Part shown: one piece after another, positions 352 through 60,823 of the stretch | Layout: each line of letters opens with the position of its first letter | Position numbering within the stretch: position 1 is the first letter of the stretch | From: Octopus vulgaris | Taxonomy: Eukaryota | Length of the DNA: 64,000 bases | Assembly (NCBI GenBank): GCA_951406725.2 | Contig: OX597826.1 | Span: forward strand, 3,720,001 to 3,784,000 | Direction: 5' to 3' | Notes under the pieces: generated by a model | What the model saw: only the letters and a program-made list of their open reading frames with translations | Told to the model about the DNA's origin: nothing | Databases searched by the model: none | Made by a program: the position numbers and the translations under genes

Positions 352-460
352 TGTAATATAATATGAGACAATTGTCGATTGCCATAACAAAACTCCGAGT
401 TTCGAATGGCGGGGCGGAAAGCTGCACTGGGATCACTTCCGTTATGGAGGCAATCAAAAT
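352..460 (-). mobile_element. Degenerate copy of HHR-bearing short element family A
   Basis: Reverse complement ATAAcgGAAGtGATc...cattcGAAACTCGGAGTTTTGTTATGGCAATCGACAATTGTCTCATATT aligns by eye with 8095-8180 and 11690-11780. Confidence 0.6.
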
Positions 461-614
461 ATCAAAATATGCTATGAAATATGCTCTCTCTCTCTCTCTC
501 TCTCTCTCTATATATATATATATATATATATATATATATATATATATATATGTATATATATCTTTATATATATATATATATATATATATATATATATATA
601 TATATATATATATA

Positions 615-1488
615 CAGGGTGCGACAAAATTTTCTGAAATATTTTTAGCTTTAATAAAAGCAAATTAAAGGAAGAAAAATATGTTTATATTTCCGAAATG
701 TACATACAATGCCATTTTATTTCATCTTGTTTTAAAAATTAAATCTGTCAAATGAGTGCCGTTACTGTCAACACTCTCTCGAAGTCGTTCACGAAAGTTG
801 TCCATAAATCGACGGGTTATTTCATGTGGAATGGCAGCAATTTCTTGACGAATGGCGTCTTTTCATTGTTCAATAGATGAAGGGCGAGTTAATACGTCTG
901 ATTTCAGGAATTTCCACAGAAGAAAATCGCACGGGCTAACCGATGTCCCCGTGCAATGACATCAAATGACGGGGGAACATCTCCCTCAAAATCCCGATCG
1001 CATGTAGAGAAGTATGGGTTGTTGCCACATCCTGCTGAAACCAAACATTTTCCCTATCGTCAATTTCATTCCATTTGAATTCAGAATAGTCTCTAGCATC
1101 ACACAGTATCGATCAGAGTTCACAGTCACTGTAACATTATCTTCTTCGAAGACGTACGAAACCCCAATACGGAATTCTGATGCTCCAGAATTTAGAGTAT
1201 GTTCGGGATTAGGTCTACCAAGCTTAAAGTGCACACGGAACGCTCTTTGTGTTGCCGTTACGGATTCGTTGTTCTTGATATATGTTTCCACATCGAAACT
1301 GCGATGCCCGCAATGTCCAATTCATGTTGGCAACTGAAAACGAATTTAAGCAAAATCTCATAAGTGGCACGAATTGAAGCAGAATGGCATTATATGTACA
1401 TTTAGAAATAAAAGCACATTGTTCGCATTTCCCTTTATTTCACTTTTATTAAACCAGCAAATGAGTCAGATCATTTTGCCCGACCCTA
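615..1488 (-). mobile_element. Internally deleted Tc1/mariner DNA transposon (DUF4817-type HTH plus DDE fragments)
   Basis: Imperfect TIRs CAGGGTGCGACAAAAT / ATTTTGCCCGACCCTA flanked by TA; minus-strand peptides ETYIKNNESVTATQRAFRVHF, VTVNSDRYCVML, WFQQDVATTH and PCDFLLWKFLKSDV, with frameshifts. Confidence 0.85.
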
Positions 1489-1504
1489 TATATATAAATA
1501 TATA

Positions 1505-1675
1505 TATATTTGTAAAAACTGAAGTTCGAAAATGCTGCTATATTATACAATTTTTAATTTTTATATATACATTATAACATGTTTCAGTTCCTGAAACATG
1601 TTATAATGTATATATAAAAATTAAAAATTGTATAATATAGCAGCATTTTCGAACTTCATTTTTTACAAATATATA
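1505..1675. repeat. Near-perfect inverted repeat (arms about 83 bp, 3-nt loop)
   Basis: ...ATAACATGTTTCAG ttc CTGAAACATGTTAT...; one mismatch seen between the arms. Confidence 0.95.
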
Positions 1676-57880: not shown

Positions 57881-58942
57881 CATATCATCTTTCCTTGCTC
57901 TTTACTCACAACTATTCTGTTGTGTAACATTTAATCGAGAATTTTTCTTTTTAACTTCGTGTAATACAGACTCATAATGTAATTAATTAAAAGATACACG
58001 TGACGCCGGTCAACCACCTTGCAAAGATGTCGTCTTGAATTTCGTCTGAATGCTGTTATTTTTGGCATTGAAGTAATGGACAGGACGTGAAAAGAGACTA
58101 CTGGTGTAAATGGCATCAACCGACTGAATTCAATTATTATGCAGAACTAATATTGACTATTCTTGCTCTCGCTCGTCTTAGTAATAGACCTTCATACGCA
58201 CACATACAGACATACACGCACACGTATATATAGAGAGATATACGCAAAAATATATACATATGCATTCATACACACGCGTACATTTATATATCAATACATG
58301 TAAATATATATATATATATATATATATATATATATACATATGCACACACGTATCCTTTATCTTTTACTTCTATCATTGATTTGTCTGCGGCCATCGACCC
58401 CAGGATATTGTTAAAGGCTATTTTGTCAGTTTGTTTTGCAAAAACAGCTAAGTTCCTGAGACATCAACAGACGAACAAAGATTGACAAGCAATGATAGGG
58501 GACAAACAAGGATGGAAAGTCATATATACATAGATACACACACACGTTCACAAAAACCCTCATACACACATACATGCATACATACATATATACATACATA
58601 CATACGTACATACATATATATATGTATATATATATATATATATATATATATATATATATATATATATATATATATATATATATATATATATATATATATA
58701 TATATATATATATATATATATATATATAATTAGAAATATTGCATTTCTAAACCTCTCAGAGAGATTTATACAGTAGCAGCACAATAAAGTGATGGTTTCT
58801 TGCCAACTTAACATGGCAGTCACAGGAAAGGGAAGAATGCTATTGCTATGTAGCCCCAGGAACCATCGTTTCCAGTTCGCTATGTGACACAAGAGTGCTG
58901 TGTCCTTACGTTTTCTAACAGGGGAGGTAAGCACCTTCACCC

Positions 58943-59013
58943 AGCAAAGCCAGCGCCTAGAGACTAGTTTCAGAGTTATTGCTCTTCATCAGTCTGCAGT
59001 AGCTTGGCTTGCT
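58943..59013 (-). ncRNA. Intact-looking minimal type I hammerhead ribozyme
   Basis: Minus strand: ...AGCAAGCCAAGCuacugcAGA CUGAUGA AGAG caauaa CUCU GAAA CUAG UC UCUaggcGCUGGCUUUGCU; canonical core, GUC triplet, palindromic ACUAGU, extended stem I. Confidence 0.85.
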
Positions 59014-59387
59014 AGCTTGATTCTTTATCAAAGGCACAATGTCTAATTACAGAGGGGACATACAAATACATGCGGGAACATAAAATATATGAATAATGAA
59101 TGTGAAATGAATATATTTACAATGCAAATGAGCCGGCCATCTCGCTCCCGCTGCAAGATAAAACTGTGTATTCCTTTACCATTAACTTTTACACAACACC
59201 TAGCCTCGCTCCGAGGTGAAACCGTGACTTCCCTTTTCGCTTTGCCTTACAATTAAATTCCTTTTAAACAAATGTTCATACAGGATTTACTTATTTATTT
59301 TCCTTTTCCTAATTTGTATATATGTGTGTGTGTGTGTGTGTGCGTATGAATATATGTATGTATGTAAATATATATATACATATATAT

Positions 59388-59430
59388 ACTAGCATTAAAG
59401 ACCCGTCGTTGCAGGGTCATAGTGCTAGTG
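59388..59430 (-). mobile_element. Helitron-type 3' terminus
   Basis: Reverse complement GACCCtgcaacgacGGGTC tttaatgCTAG|T (hairpin plus CTAG). Confidence 0.6.
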
Positions 59431-60823
59431 CATGTATGTATGTGTATATATATGTGTACATATTACATGTACATCTATATATAAACATCTACACATAAAA
59501 TACAAAATACAAAGTTATATCTTGATATCGCTAGTGATAACAATACTCAAAATATATAACAGACTGGAATTGTTAGCCCGTCTCTTGTAATTTCGATCAA
59601 TTGTACCTTGTCCTCCCTTTTGTATAGAAGTGTGGCTACAATCCAGCCTACCTCTACTTCTGTGTGGGATGGGGGCATTTTAATTTTTTTTTCCGGGACG
59701 CCCTACGTCCCAAATATAAAGGTAAATATATAATACTTCCACTTTGCAAGTTCGAGTCGAATACTCCCTTGCACGCTCCGTTGACTCGAACCTTGCTTAT
59801 ATTGTGGCGAATTTACCGCCTCTGATTAGATAACATTCATAGTCGCACCAAGACACTTTTCGAAGGTGCTTTCCTCCATGTGTTCAAATCTTCTTATATA
59901 TATATATATATATATATATATATATATATATATATATATATATATATATATATATATATATATATATATATATATATATATATATATATATATATATATA
60001 TATGCATATATACATAGATACATTCATACACATACACATATATGTTGGCGTACAAAGAAGTAAGTGAACTAGAACAAGAGTGACGAAGAGGGTGTGAGAG
60101 CGTTGGGTAGAGAGCGAGATATAGAGGAAGAGAGTATATATATATATATATTATATTATATTATATTATATTATATTATATATATATATTATATATAATA
60201 TTATATATTATATTATATTATATTTATACTATAAAATTGGATTTAATCCTAAATCTAATTTTCCCCTGTAAGTTTGGATTTACTCCCTAATATTATTATT
60301 ATTATTATTATTATTATTATTATTATTATATATATATATATATATATATATATATATATATATATATATATATATATATATATAGGCTCCCAGTGATTGG
60401 TTGTAAGTCGATTTCATCATAGTCAGCTTATAGATCTACATAGCTTTGTCTCTTATATGTTTACATTCTGAGGTAAATGTCACACACACCATTCTGTATT
60501 ATACTACTATATTTGCGTTAGACACTATTTTCGGAGTCTCAAGTAGTCGTCTTATAAACCAATACGAGTTTTCGTCGATGTCTTCGCGACATGATATTAA
60601 TCCAACTGTTGGGATAACCACAGTGGCTATCAATACCGAAACCTAGATGAAGCTTTTGTTAGCTAACATCAATCGTAGACGGGTTAATACCTAAGATGTT
60701 AAACCCATCAGATTTCAACTGGACTATTTATTGATGCCAGGAGCTGACGAGCCAATCGTCATAAAGACAATCCGTCGTAAGTCGACGCCGACCTGCGTAC
60801 ATGTATATATGCATATCTATATA

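Follow-up and report, generated by a model that had tools for sequence, protein, structure and literature searches.

Hammerhead motifs in a 64-kb window of the Octopus vulgaris genome: probable 3' ends of Penelope-like elements and a retrozyme-type repeat targeted by a LINE

Background

Minimal type I hammerhead ribozymes are known from the pseudo-long terminal repeats (pLTRs) of metazoan Penelope-like elements (PLEs), and PMC4209133 (Cervera and de la Pena 2014) reports low activity for them, seen only in multimeric or extended constructs. The Hydra and Neptune PLE clades are described in Craig et al. 2021 (PMC8557442). For the Poseidon element PAc of Anolis, PMC11167929 (Frangieh et al. 2024) describes a PLE protein that cleaves AT-rich DNA on both strands and extends each of them, with reverse transcription starting at two internal sites, which explains the tail, and uncut RNA as the template; the protein is required for its hammerhead to cleave, cleavage is dispensable for insertion in vitro, and a G3-C8 core (C3G/G8C), described only as an engineered rescue mutant, partly restores cleavage. 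Mussel retrozymes are units of 350-390 nt (PMC7229834), and a PLE origin has been proposed for metazoan non-LTR retrozymes (PMC7229834; bioRxiv 10.64898/2026.07.22.740005). Long interspersed nuclear elements (LINEs) of the Tx1 clade are known from U2 (Keno), Tx1D (Tx1L) and Mariner-N4 (Tx1-Mar) (PMC4494074, PMC4640811). Here we describe a stretch of 64,000 nucleotides from the 2.8-Gb assembly of Octopus vulgaris (OX597826.1; G000:C13:3720001-3784000; "the window"), which is 34% G+C and dense in (TA)n runs, and in which an initial annotation had listed about ten hammerhead motifs as one non-autonomous ribozyme-retroelement system. Our reading, to which we give a probability of roughly 85%, is that these sites are the 3' ends of several PLE families together with one protein-free 355-base repeat (family D, found with a LINE), and that Penelope enzymes likely pasted them into TA repeats.

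Hammerhead sites in the window

The descriptor used to search the window consists of the core N3 Y4 G A N N8 A9 (3-8 paired, an extra base after A9 optional), helix II of at least 3 pairs, GAAA, a 15.2-16.2 pair, NUH and helix I of at least 3 pairs. It finds three intact sites, in the repeat families called here B, C and D (Table 1), each with the palindromic helix III to which the initial annotation had pointed; family A has a near-palindrome. In 100 block dinucleotide shuffles of the window the mean was 0.29 sites (maximum 3), and 0.01 (maximum 1) when a palindromic helix III was demanded. A stricter descriptor (helix I of 4 pairs, no extra base) misses all three. Of 470 Rfam matches in the window, the 150 best were driven by microsatellites and include no hammerhead, and RF00163 has only 6 matches in the genome, none of them inside the window.

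Judged against other genomic copies, the remaining homologous sites (three of family A, one each of F and H, and the second B arm) are decayed members of hammerhead families, except for a near-intact one in family E. The layout proposed for about ten motifs does reflect homology to hammerheads, though no more than three are intact in the window. One of the sites listed is no hammerhead at all: at 60.5-60.8 kb the hammerhead-like words are missing from 10/10 other copies of the repeat. The ACAUGU word at 26293, one of the listed stem III palindromes, is part of family F and is not accompanied by a core. Seven repeat families (A-F and H) carry the motif elsewhere in the genome. One-defect matches at 11259, 19967, 21008, 21997, 22679, 34986 and 44506, and GAAA-palindrome words at 22639, 35178 and 43331, were set aside as likely chance.

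Table 1. Hammerhead-bearing repeats and associated features of the window
Feature	Position	Strand	Remarks
Family A fragment	352..450	-	Retains GAAA, helix III and the 3' tail; 5' part of core degraded
Family H fold-back	1503..1680	.	Inverted inside helix II, so 5' core absent
Family A fold-back	8010..8190	+	Core broken, A6 changed
Family A twin-arm copy	11539..11853	+	Short left arm, long right arm to (TA)n; core broken
Helitron-like element carrying B copy as cargo	12593..14745	+	Young, 2.15 kb, non-autonomous
Family B twin-arm element	13935..14262	-	Contains intact hammerhead 14007-14057
Intact hammerhead, family B	14007-14057	-	Core GTGAACA; G3-C8, extra base after A9, palindromic helix III; minimal type I
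Family F	25972..26328	-	Hammerhead 26103-26192 with a long helix II; position 17 is G in window copy
Family E, likely pLTR of Neptune-type PLE	50006..50195	+	Contains hammerhead 50079-50113
Near-intact hammerhead, family E	50079-50113	+	Single defect, G12 changed; C4
Family C, by sequence a Neptune-type PLE 3' end	52190..52385	+	Contains intact hammerhead 52288-52323
Intact hammerhead, family C	52288-52323	+	Core TTGAAAA; U3-A8
Family D	58729..59017	-	Positions 1-298 of 355-nt retrozyme-type unit, to (TA)n; hammerhead 58959-58995
Intact hammerhead, family D	58959-58995	-	Core CTGATGA
LINE 3' end	59018..59310	-	ORF1-only derivative of L1/Tx1-type LINE, joined to D at fixed target site
Repeat-family end, no hammerhead	60500..60790	.	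~80% identical to other copies, fixed terminus

Links to PLE coding sequence

No PLE protein match was found within the window, as the initial annotation had stated; the links come from longer copies elsewhere. Family F runs upstream through ~2.2 kb of AT-rich sequence into a Hydra-type GIY-YIG domain in 9/25 long loci, most of which show a CxCX5C linker before GIY-YIG on the same strand, and family A is likewise joined to a Hydra-type GIY-YIG in 2/25 long loci. Family C, of which 25 loci were fetched, is joined upstream to a CX4CxxC finger or a Neptune-type GIY-YIG in 5/5 translated loci, and three of these five also have the reverse transcriptase (RT) thumb. In all three families the 5' ends are staggered and the extension into PLE open reading frames (ORFs) is continuous. 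Because their upstream sequence runs into GIY-YIG or RT coding, we regard A, C and F as tails of protein-coding PLEs: by this continuity A and F are 5'-truncated 3' ends of Hydra-clade PLEs, and C is that of a Neptune-type PLE. E and H are probably 5'-truncated PLE tails too, on weaker links to PLE ORFs (see below), and no such link was found for B in the loci screened.

The view that all families are dedicated non-autonomous retrozymes moving as short units would account for the great excess of short copies over long ones and for the clustered 5' ends of E and B, and it is true of D. In the case of A, C and F it is contradicted by their continuity with PLE ORFs and their staggered 5' ends, and no tandem unit was found in the long A copies (25 loci); as an account of all families we consider it improbable. 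The PLE or retrozyme affinity first suggested is thus upheld, A, C and F running into PLE coding sequence and D being retrozyme-type, whereas the single non-autonomous system is not: D alone is a tandem, protein-free unit of retrozyme type.

A young Hydra-type family elsewhere in the genome has an intact 955-aa ORF (L136:1814-4681, G000:C2:168.27 Mb) present in at least 150 copies with 86-98% protein identity over the C-terminal part, followed by a long AT-rich 3' region and, ~2 kb downstream, a hammerhead of like build. Pfam detected no domain in this ORF. Given such an intact family, enzymes of the right kind therefore exist in the genome. The same ORF lies beside an E copy (locus L136) and was rejected as the parent of E, there being no second E copy within 8 kb. 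A hammerhead-like motif in which A6 is altered terminates a Neptune-type PLE at locus L143 (~4200-4300). The A6 position is deviant in the related motifs of L131 and L146 as well, and the change may be family-wide.

Conservation of the motif

Among the best-matching copies of five families, the core, NUH and three helix I pairs are intact in 20/30 (D), 13/22 (A), 11/25 (C), 17/25 (E) and 11/24 (F), that is in 44-68% of copies, so that these families do keep core and stems; the count excludes 8 opposite-strand duplicates of A loci and 1 inverted F locus, and many of the C misses are due to a subfamily-level change by which helix I becomes shorter. When no constraint is put on positions 3 and 8, 160/167 matches (48/55 distinct) in 569 fetched loci have a Watson-Crick pair there, G-C, C-G or U-A, and since the loci were fetched with these very motifs the counts show pairing and not genome frequency; three shuffles gave 0-1 matches. 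Helix II covaries on both sides between two C subfamilies (14 versus 13 matches). In family E, position 4 is C in 7/17 intact copies and U in 10/17; as the change falls within a CpG, C4 may have come first.

The prediction for these hammerheads is that cutting requires either a dimer or assistance from a protein. It has also to be asked whether the motifs, although hammerhead-derived, no longer cut and are kept as protein-binding or structural signals, the B core especially, an idea compatible with a PLE origin. Genomic copies span the cut site uncut, the related Neptune family has A6 changed, and the in vitro dispensability (PMC11167929) and low activity (PMC4209133) cited above point the same way. 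Against it stand the retention of the 3-8 pair in three letter combinations together with GAAA and NUH, and the finding that C3G/G8C partly restores cleavage in a PLE hammerhead (PMC11167929). We consider loss of cutting unlikely, though worth keeping in mind.

Fold-back arms and the insertion mechanism

Fold-back flanks, noted at the outset as frequent, are real for A, B and H. They pair one long with one short arm in 22/22 A and 23/24 B cases (45/46), and long-long pairs are absent; the B count was made after setting aside 7 Helitron-borne and 3 duplicate loci. The arm ends lie ~60 nt apart in both families, the inversion point differs from copy to copy, and single-arm copies are common (26/50 B loci). 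A and B share an inverted 5'-truncated arm, a one-sided tail and an AT-rich target. As to the (TA)n runs that the flanks were said to abut, nearness as such is weak evidence in this window, because a random base is already a median 218 nt from the nearest run; the copy ends, as read from the family copies, do directly adjoin (TA)n.

Short non-coding inverted repeats in a TA context could also be DNA transposons of the miniature inverted-repeat (MITE) type, with a hammerhead look that arose by chance in A, B and H. This is contradicted by the variable inversion point, by arms that are unequal according to a fixed rule, by the single-arm B loci and by the extension of A into a PLE ORF, and we find it hardly credible.

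The arrangement suggests instead that Penelope enzymes paste copies of uncut RNA into TA repeats. The two strands of a (TA)n target would be cleaved by the GIY-YIG nuclease, and the resulting ends would serve as primers for reverse transcription, each from a different one of two points ~60 nt apart; if copying stopped early, short tails or head-to-head pairs would be left. Copying of uncut RNA would also be why the copies span an intact cleavage site. The long-short arm rule agrees with PMC11167929 on both counts, two start sites and extension of both strands, and it lets the two-start-site model of how PLEs insert be tested on genomic copies.

Family B and its swapped core

The 32-letter B pattern has 1801 exact matches in the genome, and its reversed control has none; the two letters that lie outside the pattern are G3 and U4 in 29/30 loci. 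The swapped G3-C8 core of the window copy thus belongs to an abundant family. Because its fold-backs pair one long with one short arm, B would use the same Penelope enzymes as the other families; this footprint places it under PLE control, we infer, in spite of having no linked parent ORF.

The window copy of B is cargo of a longer element which, by its 3' end (a hairpin plus CTAG), we take to be Helitron-like. All 24 of its other matches (24/24) cover the same span at 91-98% identity. Besides the B fold-back it has captured the tail of a family-A copy and a tandem repeat of 107 bp, along with what looks by eye like a piece of retrozyme tail at ~14610-14690. Seven of 30 sampled B matches lie inside this element and 23/30 outside it. 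The 98% identity of the best B matches was considered as a mark of recent PLE activity and ruled out, these copies being carried inside the young Helitron-like element.

Family D and its LINE

The D unit is 355 nt long, non-coding and arranged head to tail; it bears a type I hammerhead, and its copies continue into the next unit. D is covered by contigs of four sequencing runs that are presumably RNA, and in some of these contigs the unit's end is joined to its start; such joins were not used as evidence for circles, as tandem DNA gives the same join. At the head of the window copy stand ~290 nt of foreign origin, the 3' end of a LINE derivative whose coding capacity is limited to a zinc-knuckle ORF1; the initial annotation had overlooked this LINE tail. 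Relatives of this LINE have an intact ORF2 (apurinic/apyrimidinic (AP) endonuclease, RT, zinc finger (zf-RVT)). The Tx1 label is putative and follows from domain order and target habit; homologue searches for the LINE returned no named Tx1 reference.

Junctions were counted from queries of LINE sequence alone. Upstream of LINE 5' ends is a D-like sequence in 20/30 loci and another LINE in 6; downstream of LINE 3' ends, by eye, is a hammerhead unit in 19/30 (its core ~25 nt in), a LINE-like start in 9 and other sequence in 2. The ORF2-bearing relatives precede a hammerhead unit in 15/20 loci, U2 from its first base in 4 and unrelated DNA in 1. Target duplications of ~9-14 nt, some imperfect, were found in five loci. 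The LINE thus inserts with a short target duplication ~25 nt before the D core and at +1 of U2 genes. The Keno site in U2 is, we assume, internal.

In 26/30 loci the word ATCAG precedes U2 by 57-61 nt, and in 15/18 measurable loci it precedes the LINE site by 56-60 nt. An snRNA-type (small nuclear RNA) promoter is present in newt satellite 2. The LINE site in D is likely, from the shared spacing, to be the start of an snRNA-type promoter that the LINE then borrows, which makes it a candidate promoter start for an animal retrozyme. The LINE might instead recognise only a short DNA word at the cut site, the U2 spacing match being incidental: the target duplications of any one LINE subfamily have short words in common, and the endonuclease is said mainly to determine target choice (PMC4494074). 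We think this somewhat unlikely, since the target words differ among the D-like units and U2, yet the ATCAG spacing is constant at 56-61 nt.

At locus L146 both arms of a twin-arm copy carry the LINE plus D, the D parts being 97% alike and at most 87% identical to other copies. From this one locus it appears likely that LINE-bearing repeat RNA is at times re-copied by a Penelope enzyme; a DNA duplication would also fit. The window D copy, in which the upstream half of the unit is missing and which borders on a microsatellite, is compatible with re-copying as well as with DNA duplication. We tentatively propose, as a possible rather than probable picture, a three-tier chain in which Penelope spreads a retrozyme with a U2-type promoter, and a LINE homes to its start site, takes the promoter at its head and the ribozyme at its tail and is itself re-copied with the retrozyme by the Penelope enzyme, alongside a thousand-copy family that relies on a G3-C8 core and the use of both reverse transcription start sites of one RNA, one for each cut strand, in each twin-arm insertion.

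The LINE 3' end is an efficient probe for D-related hammerhead repeats, several further families of which were recovered as LINE targets at L189, L191, L193, L198, L200, L204-L207, L213-L216, L220, L222-L225 and L227-L230. An L1/Tx1-type LINE also forms head-to-tail arrays of 5.28-kb period with an open 1148-aa ORF2 (G000:C9:59.20-59.25 Mb, C5:29.18-29.21 Mb; L231-L235).

Evidence against the PLE reading

Several observations weigh against the interpretation of these sites as PLE 3' ends and a Penelope-mobilised repeat with working hammerheads. Only 3 of the ~10 homologous window sites are intact, and the 569 loci used for the 3-8 counts were chosen by the motif itself. Minimum-energy folds did not recover the hammerhead helices for E and for both A window copies, and dimer folds show a clear helix III swap only for C, energy folding being otherwise uninformative on dimers. 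In A, where helix III is near-palindromic, helix II needs a bulge, and in F it opens with a mismatch. Neptune-type ORF fragments accompany E in only 3/7 translated loci, the sister motif in L143 being the one that ends a Neptune element; H has longer copies with core TTGATAA, and a Neptune-type GIY-YIG precedes 1/12 loci. For B, two sets of 30 loci, each locus taken with flanks of 1.5 kb, gave no link to a PLE ORF. Lastly, 4/30 LINE 5' ends match neither D nor a LINE end.

Other repeats in the window

The repeat end at 60500-60790 we take to be Tigger/pogo-like. Other LINE-class fragments, presumably R4-like, CR1/L2-like and RTE-like as judged by eye, lie at 32400-33400, 35600-37400, 40290-40900, 45000-45450 and 52400-52950. 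A very abundant repeat resembling a short interspersed nuclear element (SINE) is present at 21220-21660, 27480-27890, 38530-38700, 53165-53575 and 55380-55790, and a SINE-like copy at 27080-27350 forms a long perfect fold-back.

Comparison with known systems

The biology of the window is real and mostly known: a panel of about ten sites is, as such, the expected content of a PLE-rich animal genome, and nearly every feature of the initial annotation is already published in PMC4209133. In common with the hammerheads described there are the short helix I, the extra base between 9 and 10.1, the palindromic helix III and the U3-A8 pair, as well as the many families per genome, mostly present as single truncated copies, and the close opposite-strand pairs. 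A G3-C8 family and the octopus as host are absent from the available portion of that paper, and the long irregular helix II of A and F is a further difference. The GIY-YIG upstream of A and F matches the Hydra clade of PMC8557442, whose text gives such elements as less than 3 kb and arm ends as 30-40 nt apart; the Hydra-type elements here are longer (3' untranslated region ~2 kb or more) and the arm ends lie ~60 nt apart. As in PAc, the targets are AT-rich, two start points give the tail and uncut RNA would be the template; unlike PAc, other clades are involved here, and strict long-short pairing within one insertion is unreported in the available portion of PMC11167929.

Two features look unpublished, the natural G3-C8 core of B and the insertion of a LINE into D-like units and at U2 +1. 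A natural G3-C8 hammerhead family was not found in the literature searched, though the supplements of PMC4209133 and PMC8557442, in which more hammerheads are listed, might hold one; family B would be the natural form of the laboratory rescue mutant, and lets one ask whether hammerheads are kept for cutting. Nor was a Tx1-type LINE that targets retrozymes, or this class of target, found in that literature. D resembles the mussel retrozymes of PMC7229834 in size, non-coding head-to-tail arrangement and type I hammerhead, and differs from the metazoan retrozymes described in that its copies are mostly 1-1.6 units and that it is targeted by a LINE. The LINE resembles the Tx1 clade (PMC4494074, PMC4640811) in its zinc-knuckle ORF1, its AP endonuclease-RT-zinc finger ORF2, its fixed sites in multicopy targets and its tandem arrays, and its target specificity is far above the 20% rule of PMC4494074; unlike the Tx1-clade LINEs described in those two sources, it goes into hammerhead repeats and to the first base of U2.

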